64,000 nucleotides of DNA from Planctomycetota bacterium (GTDB lineage Bacteria > Planctomycetota > PLA2), in NCBI GenBank assembly GCA_021776735.1, contig JAJFFH010000042.1:8767-72766 (forward strand). The letters run 5' to 3'. The notes beneath the pieces are model-generated. The model searched no databases. It was given only the letters and a program-made list of their open reading frames with translations, and was not told where the DNA came from. The translations under genes and the position numbers were made by a program. This document shows, one piece after another, positions 19,889 through 56,055 of the stretch. Every line of letters begins with the position of its first letter. Positions within the stretch are counted from its first letter, which is position 1.

Positions 19889-20452
19889 ATGGACGGACAG
19901 CACTGGCTTGACGACGTGCGCAGACGGTACGACCGCTACCGGCGCCGGACCGAAAACGCTTCGGAGCAGGTGAACGACGAACAGTTCTTCGCGGTCCCGG
20001 GCGGCAACCCGAACAGCATCGCGGTCTTGATGAAACACGTCGGCGGCAACCTGCACGCGCGCTGGCGCGACTTCCTGACCACGGACGGCGAGAAGCGGGA
20101 CCGCAACCGCGACGCGGAGTTCATCGTCGATGGCGAAACACGGGCGTCGGTGCTCGGGCACTGGCAGCGCGGATGGGACACGGCGCTTGCGGAGCTCGAA
20201 CAGCTCGGGCCCGACGACCTCGAGCGAACGGTGACGGTGCGCGGGCAACCGCTCTCGGTTGTCGAAGCCATCCACCGCAACCTCGACCATGTCGTCTATC
20301 ACACGGGCCAGGTTGTCTGCCTGGCGCGCGGGTTCGCGGGCAACGATTGGCAAACGCAAAGCATCGCCCGGGGAGCCTCGGACGCACACAACGCGATGAT
20401 GCAGGAGCGCCACGGCGACTGGTGGTCCCCGCGCCCAGGCTCAGGCGTCTGA
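19889..20452 (+). CDS. DinB_2/DUF1572 family protein
   Basis: HVGGNLHARW...HRNLDHVVYHTGQ histidine triad. Confidence 0.7.
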   Translation: MDGQHWLDDVRRRYDRYRRRTENASEQVNDEQFFAVPGGNPNSIAVLMKHVGGNLHARWRDFLTTDGEKRDRNRDAEFIVDGETRASVLGHWQRGWDTALAELEQLGPDDLERTVTVRGQPLSVVEAIHRNLDHVVYHTGQVVCLARGFAGNDWQTQSIARGASDAHNAMMQERHGDWWSPRPGSGV

Positions 20453-24438: not shown

Positions 24439-24522
24439 CGCCGGCGCGGAACCCACATGTACAGGATACGACAGATTCAGGGGCAGGAACGGACGGCGAT
24501 GTCTCCGCCTACAATCTGAGGG

Positions 24523-25086
24523 ATGAACGTAGCGGCGCGCGTGCTCACCTCCGACATGTGGAACGATGTGGTCGAGGTCTTTTCGGAGACCGCGGGTTGC
24601 GATGGTTGTTGGTGTTTCAACCACCACATCGCTCCGGGCCGGCCGGACGTGCGCGATGACGCGGCGCGCGCAGCCAAGGAGCTTGCAGTGCGTGATGGCC
24701 GTGCGTCTGGAGTTGTGGGCTATCTCGACGGCACGCCGGTCGGCTGGTGCGCGGTCGATCGGCGCCGGGACATTCCGGGGCACGACTGCGTGACGGAAAC
24801 GGGCGACGACGCGGCCGGCAACGTGTGGGCGATCCATTGTTTTTTTGTGCGGGAGACGGCGCGCGGGCACGGCGTGGCTCGCGCGATGTTGCAAACGACG
24901 GTGTCGTGGTTGCGCGACGCGGGCGCCAGCGAGGTCGAAGCGTTCCCGTCGCCGCCGGACCGCGAGCCGTTCTTTCACGGATTCGGCGGGCCGTTCACGC
25001 TGTATTCATCGCTGGGTTTCGAGCAGACCGACGATGTCGACGAGAACTACTGCCGCGTTGTTTGCATGCTCGAAGCCGCACGCTGA
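24523..25086 (+). CDS. GNAT family N-acetyltransferase
   Basis: FVRETARGHGVARAML acetyl-CoA binding motif. Confidence 0.8.
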   Translation: MNVAARVLTSDMWNDVVEVFSETAGCDGCWCFNHHIAPGRPDVRDDAARAAKELAVRDGRASGVVGYLDGTPVGWCAVDRRRDIPGHDCVTETGDDAAGNVWAIHCFFVRETARGHGVARAMLQTTVSWLRDAGASEVEAFPSPPDREPFFHGFGGPFTLYSSLGFEQTDDVDENYCRVVCMLEAAR

Positions 25087-37340: not shown

Positions 37341-37551
37341 CGGGCTAGGGTAGCAACCGCGGCGGGGAACACGCTCCACCTCCGCGGTCGCGATCGGCGG
37401 CTTCGCCGTCCGCGGATCCGCCGGGTTCCGAGCACCCGGCCATAGCTGGGGCATCTCCCGTCGTGGATGTGCTTGAGGCCAGCGCCATGAGCGCGATAGT
37501 GCCCCGTGTCGCATGGAAGCTCCCTTGTTCAGGGGAGCGATCCCGAGATGG

Positions 37552-38109
37552 ATGCAAGAACATCCGCTGGCGATACCTCAGGCCGAAGTGGTATCCTTGG
37601 CGTTCGTGGAGTCTCTCGCGCGAACGTGGTTCCGGCGGGTCTGGACCGAACTCGATGCAACGGCCATCGACGAACTGTTCGCCGAGGACGGCGAGGCCTA
37701 CGGCATCCACGGCGAGACCATCGAAGGACCGCGCGGATTCCGCGAGTTCCACACGTCGTTTTGCGCCGTCTTCTCCGACATCGCCATCGAGGTCGTCAAG
37801 GAGGTTGCGAACAGCGACGAGTCGGCCGCCCAGTGCCGGGCGACGATGGTTCACCGCATGACCGGCGCGCCGGTCGTGATGACCGGTACCGTCTTCTTCG
37901 CGTTTCGCGGCGAGCAAATCCACCGCGCCTGGAACCACTGGGATTTCCTCGGCCTCCTCGAGTCGATGCAGCTCATGCCAGCGCGCTCGTTCGAGCTCGC
38001 CGTCTCGGGGCGCCTCGCGGCGCACCCCGGCGAAGCCTCGACTGCGCACCCCGGCGAAGCCTCGACTGGGCACCCCGGCGAAACCTCGGCGGGCTTCGCC
38101 GAGGCCTGA
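37552..38109 (+). CDS. SnoaL-like (NTF2-fold) protein with C-terminal AHPGEAST tandem repeats
   Basis: NTF2-like core; three copies of the 8-aa repeat encoded by 24-nt tandem units at 38019-38090. Confidence 0.6.
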   Translation: MQEHPLAIPQAEVVSLAFVESLARTWFRRVWTELDATAIDELFAEDGEAYGIHGETIEGPRGFREFHTSFCAVFSDIAIEVVKEVANSDESAAQCRATMVHRMTGAPVVMTGTVFFAFRGEQIHRAWNHWDFLGLLESMQLMPARSFELAVSGRLAAHPGEASTAHPGEASTGHPGETSAGFAEA

Positions 38110-38126
38110 ACCCGCGGACCCGGTCT

Positions 38127-38606
38127 TCAGGAAACGAGCCGGTCCAGGATCGCCAAGTAGGCAGCCGCCAGTCCGCCCCCCAGCGCCGCAATCAGCACGA
38201 AGCAGGTCACGACCCACTTCTTGGTCGCAACCGCCGCCGTGACGACTCCGGCATCTACTCCGAGACCGGCCTTCGCCTCGCCCGCCAGCAGGACCACAAG
38301 GGCCGTCGGGCCGAGTCGCCGGCGCAGCTCCGCGAGCCCACGCCGAACGCGCGCCTTGGCGGCGGCCTCCGAGACACGCTGGGCCTCCGCAACCTCACGG
38401 AATGTGCGTCCGGTGAGATAGCGTGTTTCGCAAAGGGCGGAGAAGTCGATCCCACGATCGCCGGAGAGACCGCTTGGCAACTCGTGCTGGCGCCGGACCC
38501 GGTCCCAGAGCCCAGTACGCTGCTCCTGACGGGGCTCGCGGGCGCGGGCCTTTTGTGGCGCCTCCGCCGCAAGATGTAGCCGGACCCACCAACGGGCGAC
38601 AGCCAA
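38127..38606 (-). CDS. ECF sigma region-4 plus TM fragment (possible remnant or anti-sigma-like protein)
   Basis: ETRYLTGRTFREVAEAQRVSEAAAKARVRRGLAELRRRL (sigma4 HTH) followed by two hydrophobic helices; no sigma2 region. Confidence 0.4.
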   Translation of the reverse strand: MAVARWWVRLHLAAEAPQKARAREPRQEQRTGLWDRVRRQHELPSGLSGDRGIDFSALCETRYLTGRTFREVAEAQRVSEAAAKARVRRGLAELRRRLGPTALVVLLAGEAKAGLGVDAGVVTAAVATKKWVVTCFVLIAALGGGLAAAYLAILDRLVS

Positions 38607-40704: not shown

Positions 40705-43700
40705 TCAGCGCGCGCGTTCGAGACGCACTTCGATCGCCCGCGGCTGGCCCGGTTCGAGCGTGACCGTGCGCGTCTTCGTCCGGAAGCCCTCGGCGGCGAT
40801 CGAAAGCTGCACCGGCCCGAGCGGCAGGAACGGCTTGCGCAGGATCCCATCGCCTCCGGTACGGGAGCAGCCGTGCCCCTCCGGCTCCCGCCATGGCATG
40901 GTCGAGGAGTCCATCGGAGCAAGGGCCGGGCACGTCCACGTCAATTCGGCGTTCGCCAGGGGCCGGGATCGGTCGTCGACGACACGAATGGTGAGCGGCG
41001 CCGGCGCTGCGAGCTGTACCGCGACCTCGTTCGTCACGCCGCCCTCCACATCGACCGAGTGCACCGCAAACGGATGCCGCGGCGACAGTACGCACACCGC
41101 GTATCGTCCCGGCCGCAACAGCCACACGGTCGAGTGCCCCCGTTGGTTCGTCAGCGTGCCAGGGAACCCGGTCTCGCGCCCGGGCGGCAGCGCGTACACG
41201 GCAGCCCAGCGCACCGCGTTGCCGAGCGGGTCCGTCACTTTGGCCGACACGCGCCCTTCATCGCCCAGACGGATCCCGCCGAGGTCGACCGTCTTGCCCG
41301 CCGTGACCCGCAACGGCTCGGAGAGAAACGGCGCATGACTCTCCGCCGCGATTTCGATCACCCACTTCCCGGGCGGGACCGCGGTCAAGAAGGTACCGCT
41401 CTCGCTTTCAATGTCCTCGACGTTTTCCTCGACCCGCACCAGCTTCGACATCCGGTACAGCGCCACGACGTAGCTCGTCAACGGCAGGCCGGTGCGTTTC
41501 GACCGGACGCGTCCCTTCACGTACCCGCCGGCGAACGGCACAACAAGCGTTACGTCCCGCCCGCCGGCCTCGACGGTCCAGGGTTCGAACGCGGGATCAA
41601 ACTGGAGAGCGAGGTCGGTGCGGCTGACGCCGACCTTGTACAGGCCGGGCAACAGGCTCCGGAACGTGAACGTGCCGTCGCGGCGCACCTCATTCGGCCC
41701 GAACGCTTCGCCCGCATAGTCGCGGTAGGGCTGCTTCGCATCCGAGCTGACGATCATCACGTACCGACCGCGAACCGGCTCGCCCGCGGGCATGACAACG
41801 CGCCCGGTGATCGACTTGCACTCCCGCACCTCGAGTACGGTGGTGCCGGACGCTTCGGAGCCGGCCTCCACCTCCACGCTCGGGCTGCGGTTGCCGTCGC
41901 GATCGAACGCGACCAGCCACGCGGCTCCGACTCGCAAGCCGCGGATCTCGAACGAACCGTCCGGCAGGATGGCTGAGGACTTGCCGCCCGTCGAATCCAC
42001 GCGACCGGCTCGAACGGGGTTGCCGTCCGGGCCCAACACCCGCCCCTTGACCGTGCAACGCCCTGCTCCCTTGCGTGTCCCGACGTCGAGCTCTTGACCC
42101 GGCTCGACTCGCACGCCCGGGCCGGGCTGCGAAAAGAAGTGGGTATCCGACTGGAGAAGCACGAAGATTTCGGACGCATTCTGTAGCGCGAACGGTCCCA
42201 GCCTGAATCGACCCTCCTTGTTCGAGTACGCCACGGTGTCAACCCACCGGTCCTCGCGTAACACGACGCTCGCGCGAACTCCGGCGACCGGCTGGCCCCT
42301 TTCGTCGGTGACGCGGCCCGTGATCGTCGTCGGGGACGAGAGCACGATGTCGATTCCGGTCTCGACGTCGCCGGACGGCAGGTTCAACGCGATCGGACCT
42401 CCCCACCCGAGGCCCGGTCCGAAGTAGCCAGGCGCGAAGCCATCGGCTTCGGCTCGAATATAGGCCTCCCATGGGGGGATAGCCGGGAGCCGATAGCGTC
42501 CGTTCGCATCGGAGTGCACGACAGTGACGCGCCGGCCCTGTACATGCACGCGAGCGCCGGCGACCGGGTTGCCGTCCGGATCGGTAACTCGTCCTTCCAC
42601 TACGCCGCCCGGGTCCAGCTCCAACCTCACGTCGGCCGGGGCCGCGGGGACCGTTTTCGAAGCCGACACGAAGCCGAGCTGGTGGGCGAAGACGGTGACG
42701 GAGCCGCGCACCGCGCCGAGGCGCGCGCGCCCTTCTGCGTCGGTCGTCCGGGGGGCGAAGCTCTCGTCGTCCTCGTCCTCGCCCGTTGCGCTGAACCAGC
42801 CCGTCACGATCGCGCCGGCGACAGGTTCGCCGTCGACAGTTGTGACGACCACCGCGAGCGGAGTACCGCGGTTCAGGACCATCCGCACGTCCCCGGCGGC
42901 CTGCGTATCGACCCAGCGCTCCGCGGTGAAGCACTCCGGGTGCGAGACCCGCAAGAGTACGTAGCGCGACGGCCCTGCGTTCGCTTCGAAATCGCCGGAC
43001 GGGCCCGTGCGAACGGCGGCTCCGTCCAAGGCTCGCACCTGCGCGCCTTCGAGCGGCTGGTCCCGGTCGTCCACGACGACACCGCGCATCGGGCCGACGT
43101 TCCGCTCTGCATCGCCCGCGACTGCCTTAGACAACAAGGCGGCGCCGCGGTCTATGCGCATGCGCGGCCGCTCGTCCGCGGTGTGCGGCACCAGCACGAT
43201 CGTGAGTACCGTGACTGCCGCCAAGAGTCCCATCACGAGACGGGCCCCGCCGAAAGCGACCGCGGGTGCAGCGGACGCCCGGGAGGACGCGAGAAGCCCG
43301 ACCAGCGCGGCGCACCACGCACCGCGCCCGCGAAACACCCGGTCGAGCGCCCCGCGCAACTTCGCAAGCCCGCGCTGCTGGCGGCTCTTGACCGTTTCGA
43401 CGGAGACGCCCAGCCTCTTCGCGATGCGACGCGGCGGAAGATCCTCGAAGAACCGCATCACGATGACCGTGCGGTGCTCCCGATCGAGTTTACGTACGGC
43501 TTCGACGAGGCGCCGCTGGGCCTCGAGGCGGGCTAGATCGTCCACCGTAGCCGGCACACCCTCGCTCTTTGCCCGCCTTCGCTCGCGCGCCGCGCGCCGT
43601 TCGCGGGAACGAAGCGAGACGCCGACACGATTCCGAACGACGCCGCGCAGCCACGCACGCAGCGAGCGCCGCGGCGCGTCCTGGTCCTCCATCGCGATGA

Positions 43701-43815
43701 CGAGAGCGTCCTGCGCAACATCGGCCGCCTCGTGTTCATCGAACAAGAGCCTCCGGGCGAGCGCGTGCACGAATCGCGAGTGCGCAACGAATTCGTCCGA
43801 CGTCGGGTCTGTCAT
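40705..43815 (-). CDS. ECF sigma-70 domain fused to TM helix and periplasmic carboxypeptidase-regulatory-like repeat array (paralog 2)
   Basis: MTDPTSDEFVAHSRFVHALARRLL..DVAQDALVIAM (sigma2), RTVIVMRFFEDLPPRRIAKRLGVSVETVKSRQQRGL (sigma4), TM helix, then GRVTDPDGNPVAGARV-type repeats. Confidence 0.8.
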   Translation of the reverse strand: MTDPTSDEFVAHSRFVHALARRLLFDEHEAADVAQDALVIAMEDQDAPRRSLRAWLRGVVRNRVGVSLRSRERRAARERRRAKSEGVPATVDDLARLEAQRRLVEAVRKLDREHRTVIVMRFFEDLPPRRIAKRLGVSVETVKSRQQRGLAKLRGALDRVFRGRGAWCAALVGLLASSRASAAPAVAFGGARLVMGLLAAVTVLTIVLVPHTADERPRMRIDRGAALLSKAVAGDAERNVGPMRGVVVDDRDQPLEGAQVRALDGAAVRTGPSGDFEANAGPSRYVLLRVSHPECFTAERWVDTQAAGDVRMVLNRGTPLAVVVTTVDGEPVAGAIVTGWFSATGEDEDDESFAPRTTDAEGRARLGAVRGSVTVFAHQLGFVSASKTVPAAPADVRLELDPGGVVEGRVTDPDGNPVAGARVHVQGRRVTVVHSDANGRYRLPAIPPWEAYIRAEADGFAPGYFGPGLGWGGPIALNLPSGDVETGIDIVLSSPTTITGRVTDERGQPVAGVRASVVLREDRWVDTVAYSNKEGRFRLGPFALQNASEIFVLLQSDTHFFSQPGPGVRVEPGQELDVGTRKGAGRCTVKGRVLGPDGNPVRAGRVDSTGGKSSAILPDGSFEIRGLRVGAAWLVAFDRDGNRSPSVEVEAGSEASGTTVLEVRECKSITGRVVMPAGEPVRGRYVMIVSSDAKQPYRDYAGEAFGPNEVRRDGTFTFRSLLPGLYKVGVSRTDLALQFDPAFEPWTVEAGGRDVTLVVPFAGGYVKGRVRSKRTGLPLTSYVVALYRMSKLVRVEENVEDIESESGTFLTAVPPGKWVIEIAAESHAPFLSEPLRVTAGKTVDLGGIRLGDEGRVSAKVTDPLGNAVRWAAVYALPPGRETGFPGTLTNQRGHSTVWLLRPGRYAVCVLSPRHPFAVHSVDVEGGVTNEVAVQLAAPAPLTIRVVDDRSRPLANAELTWTCPALAPMDSSTMPWREPEGHGCSRTGGDGILRKPFLPLGPVQLSIAAEGFRTKTRTVTLEPGQPRAIEVRLERAR

Positions 43816-43912
43816 CTCACACTCTTAGTTACCGTGGATCGCGAATCGAGTTCAAACGCTCACGTCCGGAGCGCGCGTGGCCCGCAGACGTCCCCGGTCA
43901 GGTCCGCTTCGG

Positions 43913-44290
43913 TCATCCCCTCCCGGAAGGGACGGTGCACAGCCGTCGAAAAGACGTAGATGGCCACGATACACCGCCGCGGCCCGCCGCGGCGAAGAGC
44001 TTGGACGCGACGCTTGTGTCCCGCCGTTCAAAGTCCTCGTCCGGCTCGTCCCACATCAGGGCCGCGTGGACACGATCTGTGTGATCCCGGACACCGCTGA
44101 AGAACGAGTCCAACAACCGCGCAGCTCATGTCGACCACTCGCAGATTCTGCAAGAACTTCGCGCTGCCATAGGCCATGGCCGCAGCGATGCGTATGCCGC
44201 GCATGAGCAGCTCCATATCTTTCTCGCTCGGGGTCACCTGACCTTTCTTGATGAAGATGGTCTCGGTGCCGTCGGATCATGGCAAGTCGC
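43913..44290 (-). pseudogene. degraded gene remnant (frameshifted), lower GC
   Basis: Two frame fragments: DGTETIFIKKGQVTPSEKDMELLMRGIRIAAAMAYGSAKFLQNLRVVDMS and LDSFFSGVRDHTDRVHAALMWDEPDEDFERRDTSVASKLFAAAG; no intact ORF. Confidence 0.4.
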
Positions 44291-44438
44291 CGCTATTTTT
44301 TTGGCACACTCAGCCGGTCGATGGCGCATGGGAGAGGTAAACGCGAGTCCGGTCGGCGGCTGAATGGCCTGGCATCGCGGGTCGGTATCTGGTCTTCTTA
44401 GCATGCGGCGCTTTCGGCGGCCCGGAAAGGAGCAACGA

Positions 44439-45182
44439 ATGTCAATGCAGTGGATTTCGTTCCCGAGTGTGAACCCCTACAGCGAGTGGCCCATCACCTT
44501 CGCGGGGGCCAATGCGCCGCCGGGCACGACACCGGTGGGTGCGTTCTTCTTCTTGAGTGGACAGTTCCAGCGCAACTCGCCGGGGATGTTCGGGATAGAC
44601 ATCGTGCTGAATGGCAACGTGCTCGGTACGGCGTGGGCGTACGTGGACGCCACGGAGGGGTACCAGCTCATCAACGAGGTGCTCGTGCCCATCTCGCCGA
44701 TCGCCCCGAGCTACGAGATCGGCCTCCAGCCTCATCCGGGGCCGTTGACGTTCGGTCAACTGACCCCGGAGTGCTCCATGTCGGGCACGCTCGTGACGCT
44801 CTTCGGGCCGCAGGGGCTGGGCCAGATCCAGACCGCGAATGCCCGCGCGTCGTCCAACCCTCCGATCGAAGCCAGCGTCGGCATCCCGCCGGCGGGCCCT
44901 GCCATCGACGCGTTCATGCTGCTCTCGGGCCAGGTACTCCATCTGCAGTCGGCTCCCGGCGAGACGATTCTGCAGGTCGACAGCCCGAGTGGAAGCGGCA
45001 CGTCGCAAGGCTATGCGGCGATTTCGAGCCAGTCGCCCATGGCGCCGTTCTTGTTGGCGGCGGAGCAGCTGCCGCCGGACGGGCAATACCAGGCGCTCTT
45101 CAGCACGCCGACACCGGGGATCGTCGGAGCCACGTCGTCCCAGACCGCGAGCGTGGTCGAACTCGAACAGCCCGACAGGTAG
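44439..45182 (+). CDS. hypothetical protein P1 (two-domain), C-terminal tail ASVVELEQPDR
   Basis: AAGGAG RBS; ~55% GC; internal similarity to P2 (APFLLAAEQLPPDGQYQALF vs PAVLFAAAPNNGAYQLQF). Confidence 0.6.
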   Translation: MSMQWISFPSVNPYSEWPITFAGANAPPGTTPVGAFFFLSGQFQRNSPGMFGIDIVLNGNVLGTAWAYVDATEGYQLINEVLVPISPIAPSYEIGLQPHPGPLTFGQLTPECSMSGTLVTLFGPQGLGQIQTANARASSNPPIEASVGIPPAGPAIDAFMLLSGQVLHLQSAPGETILQVDSPSGSGTSQGYAAISSQSPMAPFLLAAEQLPPDGQYQALFSTPTPGIVGATSSQTASVVELEQPDR

Positions 45183-45191
45183 GAGGATCCG

Positions 45192-45551
45192 ATGAACTAC
45201 TTCAAATCCGCAATGGTCAATCAACAGGCCAATCAGAACGGCATTCAGACGATCACGCTGGAGACCGGAACGAACTCCTCCGCAAGCGCGCTCGTTCTCG
45301 TGTCACCGATGGTCCTCGTCACGGCAATCGGGCCTGTGGCAGTGGATATCGAATGCGACGGCGTGACTTGGGAAACCTACGGTCAGGCGGCCGAGACCGG
45401 CTACTTCCGGCTGCCAGCCGTGCTGTTCGCGGCTGCACCGAACAACGGCGCGTACCAATTGCAGTTCAGAGTTTCCATGACCAGCTCCACCTTCGACGAC
45501 AGCTGCTGGATCACCGCCAGCGTCGTCGAACTCGAACAGCCCGACAGGTAA
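45192..45551 (+). CDS. hypothetical protein P2 (single-domain paralog of P1), identical C-terminal tail ASVVELEQPDR
   Basis: Lies 9 nt after P1; its last 33 nt are 31/33 identical to the P1 3' end. Confidence 0.6.
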   Translation: MNYFKSAMVNQQANQNGIQTITLETGTNSSASALVLVSPMVLVTAIGPVAVDIECDGVTWETYGQAAETGYFRLPAVLFAAAPNNGAYQLQFRVSMTSSTFDDSCWITASVVELEQPDR

Positions 45552-45556
45552 CGCGC

Positions 45557-48500
45557 CTATCCGGGCGGCAGGGCATCGTCTGCCGCCCGGATCTTTTCCT
45601 CGAGCGGCGCGTAGCCCATCGCGACCGCCCCCGCGAGCCCTTCCGCGAACTCCCGGCGCGCGACATCCGTGTCCCCCAGATGCGCAGCGATCCTGCCAGC
45701 GAGGAAGTGGCCGATCGCGGCATGCGCGGCACGCCGGTACGCGACCGGAACCGCGCGGCGCGAATCCAGCATCGCGGCCAGGTCCGTCGCCGCCGGCGCC
45801 TCCGCGGCGAGCCCGTCCACGACCCGAAAGAGGAGGTGCCCGACTTCCCCGCCGTCAACTTTGCGGGCCCATTCCGGCCGCGGCGCGTCCAAGAGCAGCG
45901 CCATCGCCGCGCCCTCGGCCGTCGCGGAGGTCAAAGGAGGCGCGAGCTCTGCGAGTCGCGTCGCCGCATCGTCGCGGCGACCCTGGAGCATCGCGAGCTG
46001 CGCCTGGGCGACAATGACCTCGGCCTGGATCGCCTCGTTGTTCTGTTCGATGGCGAGCGCGCGCGCCTCCGCCAGAAGCGTCATAGCCTCGTCCGCGTCG
46101 CCGGTCGCCACGCTCAGCAGTCCCAGGTTCAGCAGCACGTGTACAAGGGCGAGCGTGTTGCGGGTCTCGCGCAGGACCGGCAGCGCGGTCTCGATTTCGC
46201 GCTTCGCGCCCGCCAAGTCGCCCTCCGCCTCCCGGACCTTCGCGAGAATCCACCGCGCCTGGGCGGCGTTACTGCGATGCCCTTCCAGCGCTAGCGTCCG
46301 GATCGCCCTCTCGAGCGCCGGCTTCGCCCCCTCGAGCTTTCCCGCCGATAACGTCGCGATGGCCAGGTTGACCCGGCTGCTCGCTGCGTTGCCCCGCCGG
46401 CCCGCCCGGTCCGCGAGATCGGCGGCTTCGGCGTAGAGCGCTGCTGCTTCGTCGAACTGCAGCCGTCGTAGCGCGACGGAGCCGAGTTGATCGACCGCGG
46501 CGGAGCGCAAGGCGACATCGTCGAGCCGCTTGAGCTGCGTGATCGCGAGCTGCAAGAACTCAGCGGCCTCTTCCAGCTCGTTGCGGCGTTTGAGCGCCGT
46601 ACCAAGGAGGAGGTTTGCATCGGCGCCGGCGCGCGTGTTCGCCAGCCGCTCGGCGCAGTCGCGCAACAGCGCCTCGTCCGCCCGGCCCTTCGTGGTGAGC
46701 TCCACCCGCTCCCGGCGCACGAGGCTGCGCAGCGCCAGCTCCTCGTCGCCGCGGTCGCGCGCGGCATGAGCGAGGCGTTCAAGCAGCGACAGCGCGGCGT
46801 CGCTCTCGCCCTCCTCGATCAGCGTGGAGGCGACGCGCTCGACCAACGTCGCCTGGTCGATCAACAGGTCGTCCGCGCAGTCGGCTTCGAGCAGGCCCGC
46901 TTGGCGCGCGAAGCGAAGGCACTCGCGGCGCCGCATCGCCTGCGCGGCCTCCTGCGACGCCCGCAGCAGGTGCGGCCGCGCGCGGCCCGCCTCGTTGCAG
47001 GCGGTCCAGTGGCGGGCGAGTCGCTTCGGGTCGATCTCTTCGCGCGGCTCAAGATGCGTCGCAAGCGCCCGGTGCGTGGCTGTCCGCAGCTCGGGCGCCA
47101 TCTGCTCGTAGAGCGCCTCTTGCAGGATCGGGGTCGCGAAGAGGTAGCCTGAAGGCGCGGTGCGCAGGACGGCCGGCGCGCGACAGAGACGCTGCAGATG
47201 CCGCAGCGTGGCGAGGAGTGGCAGGCCCGCGACGGCCGCGACCGCCTGACCCTCGACTTCGACCCCGTCGACGGCCGCGACCTCGAGGAGCAGCCGATCC
47301 TCTTCGGCGAGGCGAACGATGCGGGCTTCCGCAAGGTCGCGAAAGCGCGCCGGAAGCGCCTCCTCGCGCCAGCCCGGCCGAAGCGTGAACCGGTTGGCTT
47401 CGCGGACGATCGCCCCCGACGCCTCGAGGTCCTCGAGCAGTTCGATTCCGAAGCGGGGGTTGCTCGCGCAGCGCTCCGCGATGGTCTGCGCAAGCTCGGG
47501 CGGGAGCGCCACGCCGGCGCGCTCTTCGAGGAGCGAGAAGAGAGCCTCGGCCGCGAGCCCTTCGAGCTCGAGCCGGAGCGACCCATCGACCTCGGCCAGC
47601 TCGGTGGCGGCGCCGGGACGGGCGCCGACCCAGATCCGCCAACCGGAGCCGGCGAGCCGGCGGACCAGCGTAGTGAGCAAAGCGAGCTCGTCCGCCTGGA
47701 GGTGTTCGACGTGGTCGCAACAGAGGTCCGCGGGTGCGCCGCCCGACCAGCGGTGGAGCGCCGCCTCCGCCGCTTCGGCGAAGACCGCCGGCGACTCCGA
47801 CGACAACGCGCGGTGCAGCGCCGATCGGAGGCCGCCCGCGAGGCCGCCGCCCGCGGTGAACTCGAGGTCGCACCAGTGGCGGCCGTGCTCGCGAACGCGC
47901 CGCCGCGCGTCGACGAGGAGAGCGGTCTTGCCAACGCCCGACTCGCCGGTGACCAGAACGAGGCCGGCCCGTCCCTCCCGGATCCAGCCGTCGATCCGGT
48001 CGGTCTCGGACTCGCGACCGAACAGTGGCGCGCCGGAGTCGTCGCGCGGCGCCAGGGTCGCGAGGGGCCGGTCGAGGATGTCGAGCAGCTCCGCGCTCGA
48101 TTGCGCGCGCGCGACGGGGTCTGCGACCAGACAGCGCTCGATCACGCGCGCGACTCCCGGGTCGATGTCGCGGGGCGGCTCGTATTCGGCCGACTGCACG
48201 GCGCGGAAAAGCGCGCTCAGGTCGGTGCGCGGGAAGGGCGGCTCGCCGCAGGCGAGTTCGTAGGCCAGCACGCCGATGCTCCAGAGGTCCGAGGCGATAC
48301 TCGCGGACCTGCCGAGCAGGATCTCGGGCGCCATGTAGCTCGGCGTTCCGACGGGACCGCGCGCCTCGGTCGCGCCCGCGAGATCGGCGACGGTGAGCGC
48401 GAGGCCGAAGTCCGTCAGCCGCGGCGCGCCGTCAGCCGCGAGGAGCACGTTGGCCGGCTTGACATCGCGATGGAGGATGCCCGCGTCGTGGGCCGCAGCC

Positions 48501-49045
48501 AGGCCTGCCAGAACACCGCGCAGCATCTCACGCACGCGGGCGGCCGGAAGCGGGCGGCCGCTCGCGACGATGTCGTGCAGAGTCCCGCGCGGCACGTACT
48601 CCATCTCGAGCATGACGTCGCCGTCGCTCTCGTGCAATCGCAGCAGCGTGACGATGTGCGGCGACTGGAGCCGCGCCACCAGCCTCGCCTCCACCAGGAA
48701 GGGCGCCGGATCGGTGTGCGCGGTGTGCACGACCTTGAGCGCCACGCGTCGCCCGAGTTTTTCGTCGCGCGCGAGGTAGACGACGCCGAAGCCGCCGCGC
48801 CCCAGCTCCCGTTCGATCACCAGGTGTCCAGCGCCGGCGATCCGCGTCGCTTCCCCCTGCGGTGGATCCGACGGCGCCGTCACTTCCGAAAGAAACGGTC
48901 CCGCCCGGTCGTGGGCGTCCAGCAGCTCGTCGACCGCCCGGCGGAGCGCAGCGTCACTCCCGCAGAGGCGCTTCAGCGCACGCGCCCGCTCCTCACCGTC
49001 CAGGTCGAACACCCCCGTGAAGATTGAACGAGCGGAATCGGTCAC
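45557..49045 (-). CDS. Ser/Thr protein kinase fused to AAA (STAND-like) ATPase and TPR repeats
   Basis: HRDVKPANVLL, DFGLA, SYMAPE kinase motifs; GESGVGKTAL P-loop; long TPR region; GTGA overlap with the upstream ECF sigma stop. Confidence 0.85.
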   Translation of the reverse strand: MTDSARSIFTGVFDLDGEERARALKRLCGSDAALRRAVDELLDAHDRAGPFLSEVTAPSDPPQGEATRIAGAGHLVIERELGRGGFGVVYLARDEKLGRRVALKVVHTAHTDPAPFLVEARLVARLQSPHIVTLLRLHESDGDVMLEMEYVPRGTLHDIVASGRPLPAARVREMLRGVLAGLAAAHDAGILHRDVKPANVLLAADGAPRLTDFGLALTVADLAGATEARGPVGTPSYMAPEILLGRSASIASDLWSIGVLAYELACGEPPFPRTDLSALFRAVQSAEYEPPRDIDPGVARVIERCLVADPVARAQSSAELLDILDRPLATLAPRDDSGAPLFGRESETDRIDGWIREGRAGLVLVTGESGVGKTALLVDARRRVREHGRHWCDLEFTAGGGLAGGLRSALHRALSSESPAVFAEAAEAALHRWSGGAPADLCCDHVEHLQADELALLTTLVRRLAGSGWRIWVGARPGAATELAEVDGSLRLELEGLAAEALFSLLEERAGVALPPELAQTIAERCASNPRFGIELLEDLEASGAIVREANRFTLRPGWREEALPARFRDLAEARIVRLAEEDRLLLEVAAVDGVEVEGQAVAAVAGLPLLATLRHLQRLCRAPAVLRTAPSGYLFATPILQEALYEQMAPELRTATHRALATHLEPREEIDPKRLARHWTACNEAGRARPHLLRASQEAAQAMRRRECLRFARQAGLLEADCADDLLIDQATLVERVASTLIEEGESDAALSLLERLAHAARDRGDEELALRSLVRRERVELTTKGRADEALLRDCAERLANTRAGADANLLLGTALKRRNELEEAAEFLQLAITQLKRLDDVALRSAAVDQLGSVALRRLQFDEAAALYAEAADLADRAGRRGNAASSRVNLAIATLSAGKLEGAKPALERAIRTLALEGHRSNAAQARWILAKVREAEGDLAGAKREIETALPVLRETRNTLALVHVLLNLGLLSVATGDADEAMTLLAEARALAIEQNNEAIQAEVIVAQAQLAMLQGRRDDAATRLAELAPPLTSATAEGAAMALLLDAPRPEWARKVDGGEVGHLLFRVVDGLAAEAPAATDLAAMLDSRRAVPVAYRRAAHAAIGHFLAGRIAAHLGDTDVARREFAEGLAGAVAMGYAPLEEKIRAADDALPPG

Positions 49046-49611
49046 GCCGCGCCACCCGTCATAAGCTGGTAGAGGCGCGCCCGCGCGTAGGACCACTCGC
49101 GGTGGACGGTGCGCCGCGAACGCTTTAGCGCGAGCGCGGTCTCGTCCACGCTCAGGCCCGCGAAGAAGCGGAGCCGGACGACACGGGCGAGGCCCTCGTC
49201 TTCCGTCGCGAGCTTTGCCAGGGCGTCGTCCACCGCGAGGATGTCGATGGCGTCGCCCTCCGACGCGAGGTCGATGAGGCCGAGGGGCAGCCGCGCGGCA
49301 CCGCCCCCCCGCTTGTCCCGGCCGCGCGCACGGGCGTGCTCGACGAGGATGCGGCGCATCGCCTCCGCGGCAGCGCCATAGAAGTGCGCGCGGTTCTCCC
49401 AGGCGACATCGGGCGCGTGGACGAGGCGAAGGTAAGCCTCATGGACAAGCGCGGTCGTCTGCAGCGTGTGATCGGCACGCTCCTTGGCCATGCGGTGTTG
49501 CGCGATCTTGCGGAGCTCGCCGTAGACGGCGTCGAAGAGCGGCGCGGAGACATCGCGCCCGGTCGTTGCGTCGCGCAACAGATTGGTCACGTCCTCGGGG
49601 CCGGCCGTCAT
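49042..49611 (-). CDS. ECF sigma factor, TIGR02999 (kinase-associated) type
   Basis: LFDAVYGELRKIAQHRMAKERADHTLQTTALVHEAYLRL and C-terminal ETALALKRSRRTVHREW; start placed at MTAGPEDVTNLL. Confidence 0.8.
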   Translation of the reverse strand: MTAGPEDVTNLLRDATTGRDVSAPLFDAVYGELRKIAQHRMAKERADHTLQTTALVHEAYLRLVHAPDVAWENRAHFYGAAAEAMRRILVEHARARGRDKRGGGAARLPLGLIDLASEGDAIDILAVDDALAKLATEDEGLARVVRLRFFAGLSVDETALALKRSRRTVHREWSYARARLYQLMTGGAA

Positions 49612-52103: not shown

Positions 52104-53092
52104 AAGTGCGCCATCCAGTTCCGCGCGTCCGCGCCAAGGTCCGTACCGACAAGGTCGGCGAGGGCGGCGCGCACCTCCGGCCCGTCGACAGGATGACCGA
52201 GAGCGTCAAGGAGTGCCTGCAGGTGAGACGTGTCGCCCGATCGAAGTGCGCGAAATGCCGTCCTCAAGCGCGGGTCGTGCGGCGGTGGGACCTTGGCGGG
52301 CTTTCCCTTCAGTCGCTGCTTCCACCACGCACCGCGCTTGGGATCGATCGCTGCCGCAATTTCGAGATAGGCGGGACCGTCTTCCACGTAGAGCCGGACG
52401 AGGGCGAATGCGGATCGCGGAGACTCCTTCAGCGCCGCGAACCACTTCGGGCTCGGCGCCGCCTCACAGAGGAGGAGCAGCACCGCGGGTGCGAGTGGAT
52501 CGTCACGCTTCAGGTACTCGATCGGACTCAGACCTCCGCGAAGTTCTCGCATGACCCCGCGTCGGGTTCCGCTTGCGAGTGCTAGGGCCCGAGCAGGCGC
52601 GACCTTGACGAGCGCGAGCTCGCACGCTCTCTGCAGTTCACCCTCCTCTATCGCGAACTCTTTGCGCCAGAGCAATGTTCCGTCGGGAGCGAGGATGACG
52701 TGTTGGGGGGAGATAATCTCGTTGTCGTTCGACCAACGCTGCAGCGAGAGATTCAGAACATCACGGTGAGTTCCGCAATCCGTGGATCCATAACGCGCGC
52801 ACGTTCCGTCTCGATCGTGATCGTGGGGATTCGCAACCAAGCAGATCATCGGCCGAGCCGCCGCAACAAGACCGTGGCTCGCGTACGCGTTCGACATCGC
52901 AGCGTCACGGCCGCGGGCACGGTCAAGCGCGTTGATCACGATCAGGATTGGCCGCCCTTCATTCTGTGCTCGCGTAACACTACCCCTAAGTCCACGGGCC
53001 CACTGGATGCGCTTTGCGGACTCCGTGGCTCCGATTTGGTGCGGTGATAGGAGCGCACATAGGATCAGGGAGCACGCAAGCCGCGTTGTCAT
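52094..53092 (-). CDS. secreted thioredoxin-fold-like protein lacking CxxC (noncatalytic paralog) with helical C-terminal domain
   Basis: Signal peptide; RPILIVINALDRARG...QHVILAPDGTLLWRKE resembles the Thioredoxin_7 scaffold with the CxxC replaced; ATGA overlap with ECF fusion 3. Confidence 0.45.
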   Translation of the reverse strand: MTTRLACSLILCALLSPHQIGATESAKRIQWARGLRGSVTRAQNEGRPILIVINALDRARGRDAAMSNAYASHGLVAAARPMICLVANPHDHDRDGTCARYGSTDCGTHRDVLNLSLQRWSNDNEIISPQHVILAPDGTLLWRKEFAIEEGELQRACELALVKVAPARALALASGTRRGVMRELRGGLSPIEYLKRDDPLAPAVLLLLCEAAPSPKWFAALKESPRSAFALVRLYVEDGPAYLEIAAAIDPKRGAWWKQRLKGKPAKVPPPHDPRLRTAFRALRSGDTSHLQALLDALGHPVDGPEVRAALADLVGTDLGADARNWMAHFCK

Positions 53093-56055
53093 CGCTCGCC
53101 CTCAAACCGAAACCGTAGCAGCGCTGCCACGCCCGACTTGACGGTGATCGGCGCACTTCCGTCCTGTAACCACCGACCGTCCCGGAGGAACCAGAGAGTC
53201 GCGCTGTACTTGCCCGGCCCAACCTTGGCGAACTCGAACTTACCTGCCGCGTCCGCCTTCACCGGCGCGAGGCTGCGATCGACCGCTCGCGACATCAGGG
53301 TTGACTCGCTCATGTCATACTTTGGTACAAGTCGAATACGTGCCGACCCACCGAGGCCAACATCGACTCTCCCGTGAACGGTGCCAGGCGATTCGAACTC
53401 CACCCTTACTGACGTCGTTCGATTTGCGGCTGCCACGTACGGAACCGCTCTCCATCCATGACCGCGCGCTCGAACCAGAACTACGCCGGCCCCAGGTGTC
53501 ATGGGTCGCGTTGCCCGGCCGTCATACTTGACGAAACCGGATCCCTGTGGAATCCCCAGTCCGCGCTCCGTAGTCACCGCGTACTCCAAGGATTTCTCAT
53601 CCGCGCCGCGGACGATCAACTTCAGCCTCGCTGGACCACTGGGCAGTCGAATAGCGGCCTCGGAATCCAAGGCAACTGGCACTCGCAGCGCGGCGACGAT
53701 CGGGTCCTTCTTCGCCGAGAGTGAGTACGGACCAGGAGCCAGGTCGTCGAACCGAAACGCACCATCTGCAGAAGTCGAAGTCATTCCCGGGCTCGGTCCG
53801 TGAAGTGTGACGGTGAGTCCGGGGACCGGCTCACCGGCCCCGTCAAGAACTCGGCCGTACACCGATCTACCACCTCCCCGAGCGACGCGAATACGCCTGA
53901 ACTCTCCGGCTCCAATCGCAAAGTGCCGGCGGAGTGAGCCCGCGCAAACGAGATACTCGCCGGCGGGAAGTCGATCGAATTCAACGTGCCCTTCTTTGTC
54001 TGTCGTCGATAGAGATTCGTGCTCCAACGCGAACAGAAAGGCCTCGTAGCGGCGGGGCTCGTCTTCGCGTGCTTTCACTCGGCGCGTGAGCGACACGGTG
54101 GCGTCAGAGACCGGGTGACCGGAGACCTCGTGAACTTCCAGAGAGACGCGACTGGATTCTGTGCCGACGAGTTCCACCGACACTCGCGTTCCGGGCCGGA
54201 CGTCAAGGCCATCGAGGAGGGCCGGAGCGCTGCCCGGTATCAGCGCAGCCAACGTACTCGCCCCACTGGACGAAACATGGGACGCGCCTATCAGCTTGAC
54301 TTCAACTTCAAAGCGGCCGTTCGGATCCGACCACCCGTGAACGACCGGGAGGCCAACCAGCGCTCTCGCAAAGATGCGCTGACGGAATAGTAGGAGGGGG
54401 GCATCGACAACCTCATCGCCACGCGAGTTCCGAACCACGCCATTGATGTACATCGAATGTCGCAACCGAACTTCTGCGCCTCGGACTGGCAGCAGCTCGT
54501 ACCCCGGCGCAGAGACGAAACACGTCGAGTATTCACGCTGTACCGGGTATCGGATCAGCCCATCGGCGTTCGCAACAAGTCGCCGTCGCGCAATCTCCTG
54601 TCCGTACACCGCGCCGCGGCCGGCTGAACTCGCAACGATGAGATACGCATCTGGTATGGGTGCACCAGAAGTGGCCGAGACCGCGCGCACGGTACGGGTC
54701 CTGACTTCTTGAAGAACGATCTCGATCATGCCGCGGTCCGTGAGATAGCTCTGTTCCACATAGGCCAGGCCCGCCTGCAGTGGGACAATGGAGAGGCGAA
54801 ATCGATGTGAGGGGGCCGACGGAAGGCGCGCGAGCCCTCGTGCATCGGTCACTGTCTCAGCGAAGACCTGGCGAGCGACACCGCCAAGATGCAACGTCAC
54901 GACTTGGATTGTCACGCGCTCCACCGGTCTTCCGCTCGTCTCACGCACACGAATCTCGACAGGATTCTGTTCGCGCACGGTAATCGTCGATTCGTCGCCC
55001 GGGCGGATTGACCCGACAAACGCGGGCGCGAATCCCTTGGCGCTGACGGTCACACCGTGCCGAGCGCCACCCGTTCGCTTGAAGGAAAACTGCCCATCCG
55101 AACCTGTCACAGTCTCGAACGGCCTCCGCCTTTCGCGTTCCCGTCTCAACACTGCGGCTGGCGCGACAAGTGATCCGCCGCGGACCTCCGTGGAGAGATA
55201 GACCAACCGGACTCGGGCCCCAGGCACCCCTTTCCCAGCTTCGTCGACAACCCGTCCCTCATAGCCACTCGTAGCGGGGTCAGTTTCGTCCCTCGCAGGA
55301 GGAGCGATCACAGTTTCCGCGTGTGTCGGGTCACGGCCGGGAGTTCGCGTTCGCGCCCCGTAGTCTGCAACGCGCTCCACTTCTGCTCCGCCGCTGACCC
55401 ACATCGCAACTCCCACGCCGAGGACTCCGAACACGGCTGCGCCCAGTGCACCGAGCCGGAACCATGCCGAGTCAGTCACGGCGGGACTCGTACGCACGGT
55501 CTCGCGCGAAGGCAGCCCCCAGAGTGCGACGACAGGCAACCAAGCGTGACGCTTACCGTCGTAAGCGCGATCAAGTGCATCTCGCAGCTCCGAAAGCGCG
55601 CGGTATAGCCTTGACTCCACCGTCCGAACCGAGATCGACTCTGATTGCGCAATTTCCGTAGGTGTGCGGCCGTCAAGGTAGCGGTAGACGATCATCGACT
55701 GATAGGGTTCTCGGAGCGAGTAGACGGCCGCAACCACTCGCTTCTGCAGTTCGATCTTCGCCGCTACATCTTGGGTCGACGGGGACGTTGCGCTCTGTGC
55801 GACAGCCAGCTCGCGACGGCGCCGCCTTCCCCGTGTCCGATGGGAGCGCTTGGCCAAGTTTCGCGCGATCGTTGCCAACCAACCGCGAACGTTGGTCTGG
55901 GTCTTCAGGGGTCGCTCGAGGGCGACTAGAATCGTCTCGTGCGCCAAGTCTTCCGCGTCGTTGAAGTCGACGACGAGTCCGCGGGCGAGCCTTCGCACGA
56001 ACTCGAAGTGATTCCCGAGTTCCTCGGGCGGGAGCAGCGGCCGCGGTCCATTCAT
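53089..56055 (-). CDS. ECF sigma-70 domain fused to TM helix and periplasmic carboxypeptidase-regulatory-like repeat array (paralog 3)
   Basis: DLAHETILVAL (sigma2), QSMIVYRYLDGRTPTEIAQSESISVRTVESRLYRAL (sigma4), TM helix, GRVVDEAGKGVPGARV-type repeats. Confidence 0.8.
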   Translation of the reverse strand: MNGPRPLLPPEELGNHFEFVRRLARGLVVDFNDAEDLAHETILVALERPLKTQTNVRGWLATIARNLAKRSHRTRGRRRRRELAVAQSATSPSTQDVAAKIELQKRVVAAVYSLREPYQSMIVYRYLDGRTPTEIAQSESISVRTVESRLYRALSELRDALDRAYDGKRHAWLPVVALWGLPSRETVRTSPAVTDSAWFRLGALGAAVFGVLGVGVAMWVSGGAEVERVADYGARTRTPGRDPTHAETVIAPPARDETDPATSGYEGRVVDEAGKGVPGARVRLVYLSTEVRGGSLVAPAAVLRRERERRRPFETVTGSDGQFSFKRTGGARHGVTVSAKGFAPAFVGSIRPGDESTITVREQNPVEIRVRETSGRPVERVTIQVVTLHLGGVARQVFAETVTDARGLARLPSAPSHRFRLSIVPLQAGLAYVEQSYLTDRGMIEIVLQEVRTRTVRAVSATSGAPIPDAYLIVASSAGRGAVYGQEIARRRLVANADGLIRYPVQREYSTCFVSAPGYELLPVRGAEVRLRHSMYINGVVRNSRGDEVVDAPLLLFRQRIFARALVGLPVVHGWSDPNGRFEVEVKLIGASHVSSSGASTLAALIPGSAPALLDGLDVRPGTRVSVELVGTESSRVSLEVHEVSGHPVSDATVSLTRRVKAREDEPRRYEAFLFALEHESLSTTDKEGHVEFDRLPAGEYLVCAGSLRRHFAIGAGEFRRIRVARGGGRSVYGRVLDGAGEPVPGLTVTLHGPSPGMTSTSADGAFRFDDLAPGPYSLSAKKDPIVAALRVPVALDSEAAIRLPSGPARLKLIVRGADEKSLEYAVTTERGLGIPQGSGFVKYDGRATRPMTPGAGVVLVRARGHGWRAVPYVAAANRTTSVRVEFESPGTVHGRVDVGLGGSARIRLVPKYDMSESTLMSRAVDRSLAPVKADAAGKFEFAKVGPGKYSATLWFLRDGRWLQDGSAPITVKSGVAALLRFRFEGER

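Follow-up and report, generated by a model that had tools for sequence, protein, structure and literature searches.

Two adjacent genes in a stretch of DNA from a planctomycete, a soil bacterium, here called P1 and P2, encode proteins with the same ending, ASVVELEQPDR. Is this ending a signal carried by two separate proteins, a piece of DNA exchanged between two genes, or a part of a structure that the two proteins build together? We have followed up an earlier note on the locus by computational analysis of the window (the whole 64-kb stretch of DNA in which the genes lie) and of the related loci found elsewhere.

The locus and its relatives

P1 and P2 are, as first read, intact open reading frames of the plus strand, with coding-like base composition in frame: the frame-specific GC3 is 0.87 in P1 and 0.78 in P2, and its periodicity is strong. 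The features on which the argument depends are as follows.

43840..44334, minus strand: probable degraded gene (frame plot, six-frame translation)
44352..44438, plus strand: 5′ region of the operon, kept in two related loci, L001 and L002 (DNA alignment)
44439..45182, plus strand: P1, 247 aa, two predicted jelly-roll domains, stop codon TAG (ORF, GC3, orthologues P0002, P0003 and P0007)
44439-44810, plus strand: P1-N domain, about residues 1-124 (domain alignments)
44811-44828, plus strand: P1 linker QGLGQI, short, joining P1-N to P1-C
44829-45179, plus strand: P1-C domain, residues 131-247 (domain alignments)
45144..45179, plus strand: P1 tail TASVVELEQPDR, predicted last beta-strand of P1-C plus the extension EQPDR; repeat with 45513-45550
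45180..45191, plus strand: coupling junction TAGGAGGATCCG
45192..45551, plus strand: P2, 119 aa, one predicted TNF/C1q-like jelly-roll domain of nine beta-strands (AlphaFold2, Foldseek, orthologues)
45513..45548, plus strand: P2 tail TASVVELEQPDR, predicted last beta-strand of P2 plus EQPDR
45559..45592, plus strand: hairpin resembling an intrinsic terminator, directly 3′ of P2 (terminator scan)
45557..49096, minus strand: Ser/Thr kinase-AAA_16-TPR (MalT-like) gene, convergent with P1-P2 (Pfam, synteny)

The family to which these genes belong is extremely rare and patchy, being found on six other contigs among about 15 billion proteins. The window shares its gene order, two domains followed by one (2+1), with L001, L002 and L003; L004 is identical to the locus of the window. 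Three of the four distinct 2+1 loci (window, L001 and L002) are close relatives. L005 and L006 form a distant subfamily with the order 1+2. At every locus found, two tightly coupled genes together encode three domains, either 2+1 or 1+2. The P2 orthologues are P0005, P0006 and the gene of L003. When the P1 alignment was run against GTDB genomes, JGI metagenome contigs and IMG/VR, no further loci came up, although the JGI negatives are weaker than they look because that collection evidently lacks the short contigs L001 and L002. Likewise, tblastn against plasmids and GenBank phages returned no relatives of P1 or P2.

The layout of the two genes shows tight coupling of their translation. P1 has a Shine-Dalgarno sequence, AGGAG, at 44428-44432, 6 nt ahead of its ATG; a promoter scan of the operon 5′ region found no sigma-70 consensus promoter. 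At the junction the P1 stop overlaps the Shine-Dalgarno sequence of P2, the gap is 9 nt, and P2 lies in the frame of P1. The layout is the same in L001, L002 and L003. The junction of L005 and L006, TGAGGAGGAGGCGATG, is analogous to that of the window, but there the second gene is out of frame. The overlap of stop and Shine-Dalgarno sequence, with a gap of 9-10 nt, is therefore common to both subfamilies. Read-through of the P1 TAG into P2 was considered, the frame being common to all four 2+1 loci, and was treated as incidental because the TAG is accounted for by the Shine-Dalgarno overlap; in the 1+2 subfamily the two genes differ in frame. The hairpin behind P2 has a 14-bp stem followed by CTTTTCC (RNA fold z = -3.06) and overlaps the convergent kinase gene, lying within its last codons.

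The kinase gene is followed by a Sigma70_ECF gene, and Pfam bears out this arrangement as it was originally described. The kinase gene holds the same position in L001 and L002 and is absent from L005 and L006; its PADLOC matches fall mostly within its kinase domain. Upstream of the operon, the degraded gene that had been placed at 43913-44290 is only partly substantiated. The minus strand has coding-like GC3 periodicity that changes frame twice, near 44110 and near 43975, as fits a degraded gene; there is no start codon, and no homologue or family was found for it in Pfam, NCBIfam, PHROGs, PADLOC, a GTDB scan or PDB sequences. The 27 ORFs of the window that were scanned against Pfam, an incomplete survey, include no peptidase, chaperone or secretion gene.

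Three domains of a TNF/C1q-like fold

That P1 and P2 are paralogous, as the earlier note proposed, is clear from the C-terminal half of P1, which matches P2 by BLASTP (34% identity, E 1e-6) and by hhalign (probability 98.6%, E 5.4e-16). The two repeats claimed within P1 stand less firmly. The multiple alignments (A2 and A5), by which the domain units are defined, and weak C1q-like Foldseek matches speak for them, but pairwise comparison gives only E 0.04 for P1-N against P2 (in register over 92 columns) and E 0.012 for P1-N against P1-C (21 columns).

The family is a sequence orphan without a Pfam or NCBIfam model; neither P1, P2 nor the upstream remnant had a match in Pfam, NCBIfam, PHROGs or PADLOC. 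Structure prediction assigns a TNF/C1q-like fold. The AlphaFold2 model of P2 is all-beta, with nine strands (pLDDT 90, pTM 0.82). A Foldseek search of the PDB with this model matched, at probability 1.00 (E 5e-7 to 3e-5, TM 0.44-0.65), dozens of chains from TNF, C1q and TNF-like lectins, among them the BC2L-C N-domain, PLTL, EDA-A1/A2, the C1q domain of Caprin-2, adiponectin, C1QL1/2, the Pgp3 C-domain and ExsFA. Matches in BFVD were to uncharacterized, collagen-repeat and tail proteins of phages and to collagen-like proteins of giant viruses. P2 is accordingly modelled as a TNF/C1q-like jelly roll. The model of P1 alone is poor (pLDDT 55, with the C-domain below 50) and carries no information on domain packing; at this low confidence its Foldseek matches, to Pgp3, C1QL and Cbln1, are weak.

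The fold leaves no trace in the sequence profiles. Neither C1q (PF00386) nor TNF (PF00229) was matched by P1, P2 or their orthologues in Pfam or NCBIfam at E up to 1, and a domain profile run against PDB sequences gave nothing relevant, only chance-level matches to EccB3 (E at least 1). Since there is no sequence similarity to known TNF/C1q families, their ligand-binding residues cannot be transferred to P1 and P2. Neither protein has a Gly-X-Y run, and the fold of P2 begins at residue 5. The reported lack of a signal peptide holds as well: no hydrophobic N-terminus is seen by eye, and residues 5-12 of P2 already form a beta-strand of the predicted fold.

The shared tail

Both proteins do end in ASVVELEQPDR, and the match of 31 of the last 33 nt extends to 36 of 38 (45144-45181 vs. 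45513-45550, BLAST E 5.6e-11). A 26-nt exact core has only these two copies in the window and never turned up in shuffled sequences, and the pair of tails is the only DNA repeat of P1 or P2 segments within the window. The search for other ORFs with this ending, which had been suggested, gave none in the window besides P1 and P2. A degenerate DNA pattern of the tail had 0 matches in JGI metagenome and IMG/VR contigs (the former with the reservation already made). The idea of a dispersed repeat is thus rejected, and that of a recombination site finds no support, as there are two copies only, both at the ends of ORFs. An RNA element fared no better: with fold z-scores of +0.26, -0.53 and -1.32 the RNA of the tails folds no better than shuffled sequences, there is no Rfam match, and a structured RNA or riboswitch, whether at the tail or at the junction, was rejected.

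In the P2 model, a strand at residues 106-114 reads WITASVVEL, and residues 115-119, EQPDR, lie outside it; the mean pLDDT of the last ten-residue block is 75. The shared tail is thus predicted to be the last beta-strand of the domain plus a five-residue end piece, not a detachable tag. All nine domain units of the subfamily to which the window belongs have Pro after the last strand; this holds even for P1-N, whose last strand continues into the linker. A PEP-CTERM/exosortase signal was also considered and rejected, as the tail (...VVELEQPDR) has no hydrophobic helix and neither protein matches PF07589. A true PEP-CTERM protein is encoded elsewhere in the window, at 37506-38579.

Among P1 orthologues the tail is invariant apart from exchanges of E for D and R for K. 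Between the window and L003 the amino acids of the P1 tail are kept, although just 4 of its 11 codons agree; dN is about 0 and dS is saturated. Because the synonymous sites of the P1 tail vary and dN is near 0, the constraint on the tail is one on the peptide. The earlier note had left a choice between gene conversion and selection on a C-terminal signal; the second is favored by these data, and the first is possible only.

The rest of the two proteins behaves differently. The dN/dS of the gene bodies is 0.6-2.5 (0.95-2.3 for P1 and 0.63-0.78 for P2), dropping to 0.65-0.70 at the longest distance. Judged by these substitutions, amino-acid evolution of P1 and P2 is fast everywhere except in the tail, which alone is strictly conserved, and the ratios near or above 1 could partly mean relaxed constraint. 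A DGR target was considered and set aside, as, apart from the tails, no part of P1 or P2 is repeated in the window, and the substitutions between L001 and L002 are not adenine-biased.

A proposed split pseudo-threefold head

Characterized members of the TNF/C1q-like fold are usually trimeric. From this habit, and from the three domains at each locus, we infer that P1 and P2 may form a pseudo-trimer. One P1 and one P2 would make a pseudo-threefold head of three non-equivalent protomers, a natural but split counterpart of a single-chain TNF or of the heterotrimeric C1q head. Taken jointly, the reading of the operon as three divergent TNF/C1q-like domains that probably assemble 1:1 into one such head has, in our estimate, about an even chance of being right. 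The suggestion that the genes might encode a toxin, effector, cargo or structural pair survives in its last form, as a structural pair would fit the hetero-oligomer; Pfam, PADLOC and PHROGs gave no match for a toxin, effector or cargo protein.

In the TNF/C1q fold the last strand belongs to the inner sheet, which packs around the threefold axis. The strand TASVVEL would then line the axis of the head, and EQPDR would be a short charged extension at its base. The head would have two free and identical C-termini, because the C-terminus of the third domain serves as the linker of P1. As a terminal strand with a charged extension at the base, the tail may have been kept by selection for assembly, or for docking of base to base or to a partner. 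Occasional short-tract gene conversion between the 3′ ends may help to keep the two tails in step. The rapidly diversifying remainder suggests ligand recognition of a lectin- or adhesin-like kind, on the analogy of the TNF-like lectins of bacteria and of the fibre proteins matched by predicted structure; this is the weakest step of the proposal. Since there is no signal peptide, a surface or lectin role would require non-classical export.

Several known systems bear on the proposal. Among the closest are the BC2L-C N-domain of Burkholderia cenocepacia (2wq4, 6tig) and PLTL of Photorhabdus laumondii (9ib7), jelly rolls of small bacterial proteins to which P2 matches with Foldseek E of about 1e-6 and TM of 0.52-0.62, at 9-15% identity in the structural alignments. 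In PLTL the C-termini are on the axis, the C-terminal residues form a trimer-trimer interface, and the sugar sites lie between protomers (PMC12914763). BC2L-C and PLTL, however, are homotrimers of a single-domain chain, whereas P1 and P2 comprise three different domains, spread 2+1 over two genes. In this respect the best analogue of the proposed pseudo-trimer is the C1q head, in which three unlike modules of the fold are united: it is a heterotrimer of ghA, ghB and ghC, non-identical modules that are each free to specialize (PMC3334295). C1q differs in being eukaryotic and secreted, with three chains and collagen stalks; P1 and P2 have no collagen repeat and two of their modules are fused, and their heteromer is a proposed one.

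Fusion of protomers is not foreign to the fold. TNF and TRAIL protomers tolerate head-to-tail fusion via short linkers (PMC3032523), and a mussel protein, HcC1qDC6, has three tandem gC1q domains in one natural chain (PMC5519582). These are single chains, with identical copies where engineered, whereas P1 and P2 are split 2+1 and their natural linker is about 6-8 residues. When the literature was searched for TNF/C1q domains in tandem or in split form in bacteria, only an animal protein with three C1q domains came up.

Other relatives of the fold are more distant in context. The C-domain of Chlamydia Pgp3 (PDB 4jdn, 4jdm) resembles P2 in being bacterial and TNF-like with no classical family signature, but a Pgp3 chain has a single jelly-roll domain, to which, according to the entry titles, further parts are joined on the N-terminal side, a coiled coil among them. 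The BFVD predictions of fibre or collagen-repeat proteins from phages and giant viruses match the fold at E of about 3e-7 to 6e-6. These viral proteins and P1/P2 may both be fast-evolving recognition modules. Unlike the viral fibres, P1 and P2 have no phage context, PHROG matches, relatives in IMG/VR or GenBank phages, or fibre shaft. P2 also matches structurally ExsFA of the Bacillus exosporium (PDB 7r5i); BclA, another bacterial spore-surface protein, has a C1q-like structure (PMC3334295). ExsFA and BclA differ from P1/P2 in phylum and endospore context, in having one domain per chain and in lacking an equivalent of the conserved tail, and BclA has a collagen-like region.

Alternative explanations

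The three domains need not meet in one head. P1 and P2 could form separate homotrimers, of six and three domains, respectively, with the tail as a docking or sorting peptide that a further component reads, such as the TPR region in the neighboring kinase, or a lattice or envelope partner. This would suit the conservation of EQPDR outside the last strand, the use of C-terminal residues for higher-order assembly in PLTL, and the presence of a TPR-bearing kinase as a conserved neighbor in the window, L001 and L002. But it leaves unexplained why three domains in two coupled genes recur in two gene orders, the three loci with the kinase are close relatives while L005 and L006 have none, and the tail is on no other ORF of the window, its DNA pattern being unmatched in the JGI metagenome and IMG/VR. 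We consider it unlikely, though worth keeping in mind. The identity of the tails could, alternatively, be mainly a matter of DNA, the peptide having no special role: gene conversion would act between 38-nt direct repeats, or the repeats would be a recombination site by which P2 is deleted or duplicated. The codons speak on both sides. P1 and P2 of the window agree in 10 of 12 tail codons (background 0.38, P = 0.002), an E-to-D change (GAA to GAC) is common to both L003 tails, and all nine P2 tail codons compared between the window and L003 are identical (P = 0.0004), so some homogenization of the two tails at the DNA level is possible. Yet in L003 P1 and P2 agree in just 7 of 10 tail codons (P = 0.26), and codons specific to P1 (GCG, GTG) and to P2 (GCC, GTC/GTT) stay separate in the window, L001 and L002. 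Moreover, 7 of the 11 P1 tail codons change while the amino acids are kept, and conversion alone does not explain the missing non-synonymous change. As the main cause, an effect on DNA thus seems to us rather improbable.

The earlier note described a low-GC islet of about 55% GC that could be an acquired module, and a horizontally acquired accessory module (a toxin, effector or cargo pair) beside a decayed gene would fit the mild GC dip, the pseudogene-like spacer upstream, the extremely patchy distribution and the hot spot of divergence that near-identical strains show at the locus. The GC figure was too low, however: 43913-45551 has 63.1%, P1 66.1% and P2 58.9%, against 66.4% on average for the window and 69-72% for the genes on either side, and a stretch near 58251, at 60.9%, is lower in GC than this region. 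The GC3 of P1 and P2 is host-like (0.83-0.86 in neighbor genes), so the dip stems from amino-acid composition, and a mild dip of this kind does not support recent acquisition. Nor was an integrase, transposase or tRNA signature seen adjoining the locus, or relatives in plasmids, phages or IMG/VR, or matches to toxin or defence families; we give this explanation a low probability. Least probable of all is that P1 and P2 are decaying or spurious ORFs, no longer selected. The high dN/dS, of P1 especially, would be expected of such ORFs, but four loci, at dS of up to about 1, have preserved both frames and lengths, GC3 periodicity is strong, the fold is predicted with confidence, several strands are conserved along with the tail, and the ratio falls at the longest distance. 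A bolder variant of the split heterotrimer, which we think very unlikely, would keep it inside the cell: a hypervariable recognition head whose two invariant ELEQPDR-COOH ends would be read by the TPR sensor of the adjacent STAND-type Ser/Thr kinase, the capture of a ligand being passed on to the neighboring ECF sigma factor. If true, this would be an undescribed input module of kinase/ECF signalling, possibly for sensing foreign molecules.

Concluding remarks

Each of the bacterial proteins matched in this analysis has one type of domain, but C1q shows that three unlike modules can be united in one head. If the split pseudo-threefold head is real, a family that always has three diverged domains in two coupled genes would amount to an experiment of nature on how threefold symmetry can be broken, parallel to the engineered single-chain TNF ligands, and this sequence-orphan family would join the small set of bacterial TNF-like proteins. 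The combination of fast surface evolution with an invariant C-terminal strand and tail, as modelled, would separate the part that assembles from the part that probably recognizes. As P1 and P2 are, judging from their sequences, two small soluble proteins, this split of roles should be directly testable.

The P1-P2 operon

P1 and P2 form a compact two-gene operon, laid out as follows.

44439-45182, + strand: P1, intact ORF of 247 aa (halves P1-N and P1-C)
45192-45551, + strand: P2, intact ORF of 119 aa
45559-45592, directly 3′ of P2: strong hairpin, then a T-run

In a frame plot, the third codon position of P1 and P2 has the highest GC over the full length, so the long antisense ORFs are high-GC shadows. 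An AGGAG Shine-Dalgarno lies 6 nt upstream of the P1 ATG. The P1 stop falls within TAGGAGGA, which is also the Shine-Dalgarno of P2, and P2 starts nine nucleotides on. The operon faces a Ser/Thr kinase-AAA_16-TPR gene and a Sigma70_ECF gene in convergent orientation; a gap of 623 nt lies between it and a divergent ECF-sigma/CarboxypepD_reg fusion gene. The operon terminator hairpin (45557-45592) lies inside the final codons of that kinase gene, and a single hairpin may serve both transcripts.

The earlier note had described the locus as a low-GC islet (about 55%) and a possible acquired module. Measured GC comes to 63.1% over the region (P1 66.1%, P2 58.9%), and the GC minimum of the window lies elsewhere. 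GC3 is host-like (P1 0.87, P2 0.78; neighbours 0.83–0.86), so composition is a weak argument for recent acquisition. Upstream of P1, where a gene remnant had been proposed (43913-44290), the minus strand of the spacer does have the periodicity of coding DNA, switching frame twice; no homologue was found in any of the resources tried.

Domain units and fold

By sequence comparison, P1-C and P2 are clear homologues (BLASTP E 1e-6; hhalign 98.6%, E 5e-16). P1-N aligns with P2 in register over 92 columns with weak statistics (E 0.04), the alignment ending in C-x-x-S/T-G/A-T/S-L/V-V-x-L-x-x-P; the match between P1-N and P1-C is also weak (21 columns, E 0.012). Nine-unit and fifteen-unit alignments support one domain of about 115–125 aa, present in three copies per locus.

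The AlphaFold2 model of P2, built with the nine-unit alignment, has nine beta-strands (pLDDT 90, pTM 0.82). Foldseek matched it in the PDB to TNF/C1q-like jelly rolls with probability 1.00, including the BC2L-C N-domain, PLTL, EDA-A1/A2, Caprin-2 C1q, adiponectin, C1QL1/2, the Pgp3 C-domain and ExsFA. In BFVD the matches were phage proteins (uncharacterised, collagen-repeat and tail) and giant-virus collagen-like proteins. The model of P1, though poor (pLDDT 55), still matched Pgp3, C1QL and Cbln1. No Pfam or NCBIfam model matched, nor was there a sequence-level match to the structural neighbours. The predicted TNF/C1q-like fold is a solid assignment; a lectin-like role in recognition is a guess from analogy.

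The common tail

Both proteins end in TASVVELEQPDR. The near-identity of the two 3′ ends reported earlier (31/33 nt) is correct and extends to 36/38 nt (45144-45181 vs 45513-45550, E 5.6e-11) with an exact core of 26 nt; it is the region's sole repeat within the whole window. In the P2 model the last strand is WITASVVEL (residues 106–114), so that the fold's terminal strand makes up most of the tail; EQPDR lies beyond it, and the final block has a mean pLDDT of 75. The window subfamily has an invariant Pro after the last strand (9/9 units), also in P1-N, whose chain runs on past it into the linker.

The last-strand motif opens with a shared (T/S)(A/G)(S/T), and three or four residues ahead of it both P1-N (PEC) and P2 (xxCW) have a conserved Cys; in P1-C the position is Ser or Tyr:

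P1 residue 112 (about 44772-44774): conserved Cys
P2 residue 105 (about 45504-45506): conserved Cys

The Cys may form a disulfide or a metal site, which would tell the three positions apart.

Distribution

The family is extremely rare. Protein searches covering 5.8 billion clusters and 1.84 billion representatives recovered the window's own proteins and six loci: two close ones from JGI metagenomes (L001, L002), a more distant one from ENA (L003, about 39% identity), an exact window copy in a Logan assembly (L004), and a distant subfamily on two ENA contigs with names reading farmland (L005) and forest (L006). No relatives were found in GTDB genomes, JGI metagenome contigs, IMG/VR, plasmids or phages. 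The L001 and L002 contigs stop about 80–100 nt upstream of P1 (their position 1 is at about 44352-44370), and these ends coincide with the edge of the pseudogene-like spacer; in those populations the sequence upstream of P1 may vary between strains or be repetitive.

Divergent bodies and a constant tail

The locus stands out as a hot spot of divergence with sharp bounds. Between L001 and L002, two metagenomic strains, identity is 98–100% in the kinase gene, 72–97% in P1 and 88–95% in P2 (mapped to 44400-45520), worst at 44938-44994. By Nei-Gojobori, dN/dS is 0.95–2.3 for P1 (about 2.3–2.5 for L001 vs L002), 0.63–0.78 for P2 and 0.15–0.49 for the neighbouring kinase in its C-terminal part. Decaying genes could give such values, but the reading frames are intact as far as dS reaches about 1, at which distance dN/dS is 0.65–0.70; P1 and P2 are thus functional and fast-evolving. 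The signature of a DGR was absent.

The exception is the tail, with dN about 0. Only 4/11 P1 tail codons are the same in the window and L003; this free divergence places the constraint on the peptide. Homogenisation at the DNA level is hinted at by codon sharing: the two window tails have 10/12 codons in common (P = 0.002), the same GAA-to-GAC change is present in both tails of L003, and P2 tail codons agree at 9/9 across the deepest split. Against it, paralogue-specific tail codons are stable in three close loci, and gene conversion is at most a contributor to the tail identity. In that P2 comparison, window 45513-45548 vs L003 1204-1240, the nine codons are those of conserved residues (P = 0.0004; body same-codon rate 0.42). 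Codon bias, or a DNA/RNA constraint by the terminator, is a possible cause of this asymmetry between P2 and P1 tails. An RNA element within the tail was rejected, the tail-coding RNA having no special structure.

Other genes in the window

Three proteins start with an ECF sigma factor (regions 2 and 4) that is fused to a long array of CarboxypepD_reg/Big_1-like beta-sandwich repeats, an unusual paralogous sigma-factor architecture to recur within 64 kb.

3819-6902, 40705-43815, 53089-56055, − strand: ECF-sigma/repeat fusions, about 1000 aa each
56120-57862, − strand: fourth gene, CarboxypepD_reg/Big_1-like repeats only
20441-23092, − strand: DUF6493/DUF7824/DUF7825 protein
23089-24978, − strand: SWIM zinc-finger protein
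37506-38579, + strand: protein ending in a PEP-CTERM motif

The DUF6493/DUF7824/DUF7825 protein overlaps the start of the SWIM protein, and the pair looks conserved. The PEP-CTERM motif, unrelated to the ELEQPDR tail, implies that the host has a sorting system of the exosortase type.

Three domains per locus

The two-domain gene precedes the single-domain gene in the window, L001, L002 and L003. The order is reversed in L005 and L006, where a 111-aa single-domain gene comes first and a two-domain gene of 221 or 222 aa begins 10 nt on; here too the first stop overlaps a Shine-Dalgarno. All three domains there have the last-strand motif ND-x-F-x-x-[SA]-[VLM]-[IY]-[FYD]. The L005 pair lies downstream of NiFe hydrogenase and HycI genes and upstream of a hybrid histidine kinase; L006 neighbours a zinc-ribbon membrane protein. 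As neighbours differ between subfamilies, the pair itself is the conserved unit.

P2 is in the reading frame of P1 in 4/4 loci of the first order (window 44439-45551, L001–L003), with only TAG and three codons between, so that read-through would yield a three-domain chain. The shared frame is probably incidental, since the other subfamily is out of frame.

Members of the TNF/C1q fold family are described as usually trimeric (PMC12914763, PMC3334295). The simplest explanation of a constant three domains in two coupled genes, despite differences in fusion, is a 1:1 P1:P2 pseudo-trimer; it is the best-supported inference, to which we give about an even chance. Its ingredients have precedents in the heterotrimeric C1q head (PMC3334295), single-chain TNF/TRAIL (PMC3032523) and the three tandem gC1q domains of a mussel protein (PMC5519582).

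Pairwise identities between L005 (2303-3314) and the window (44439-45551) are only 21–24%. Tentatively, P1-N would correspond to the C-terminal one of the two domains in the L005 two-domain protein, and P1-C and P2 to the two remaining domains of L005. If this pairing is true, the order of the fused pair differs between subfamilies and the total is still three. P1 and P2 are a small feature, but real and unusual: a bacterial family of TNF/C1q-like jelly rolls, orphan by sequence, always with three domains per locus split over two coupled genes, with hypervariable surfaces and an invariant C-terminal strand and tail.
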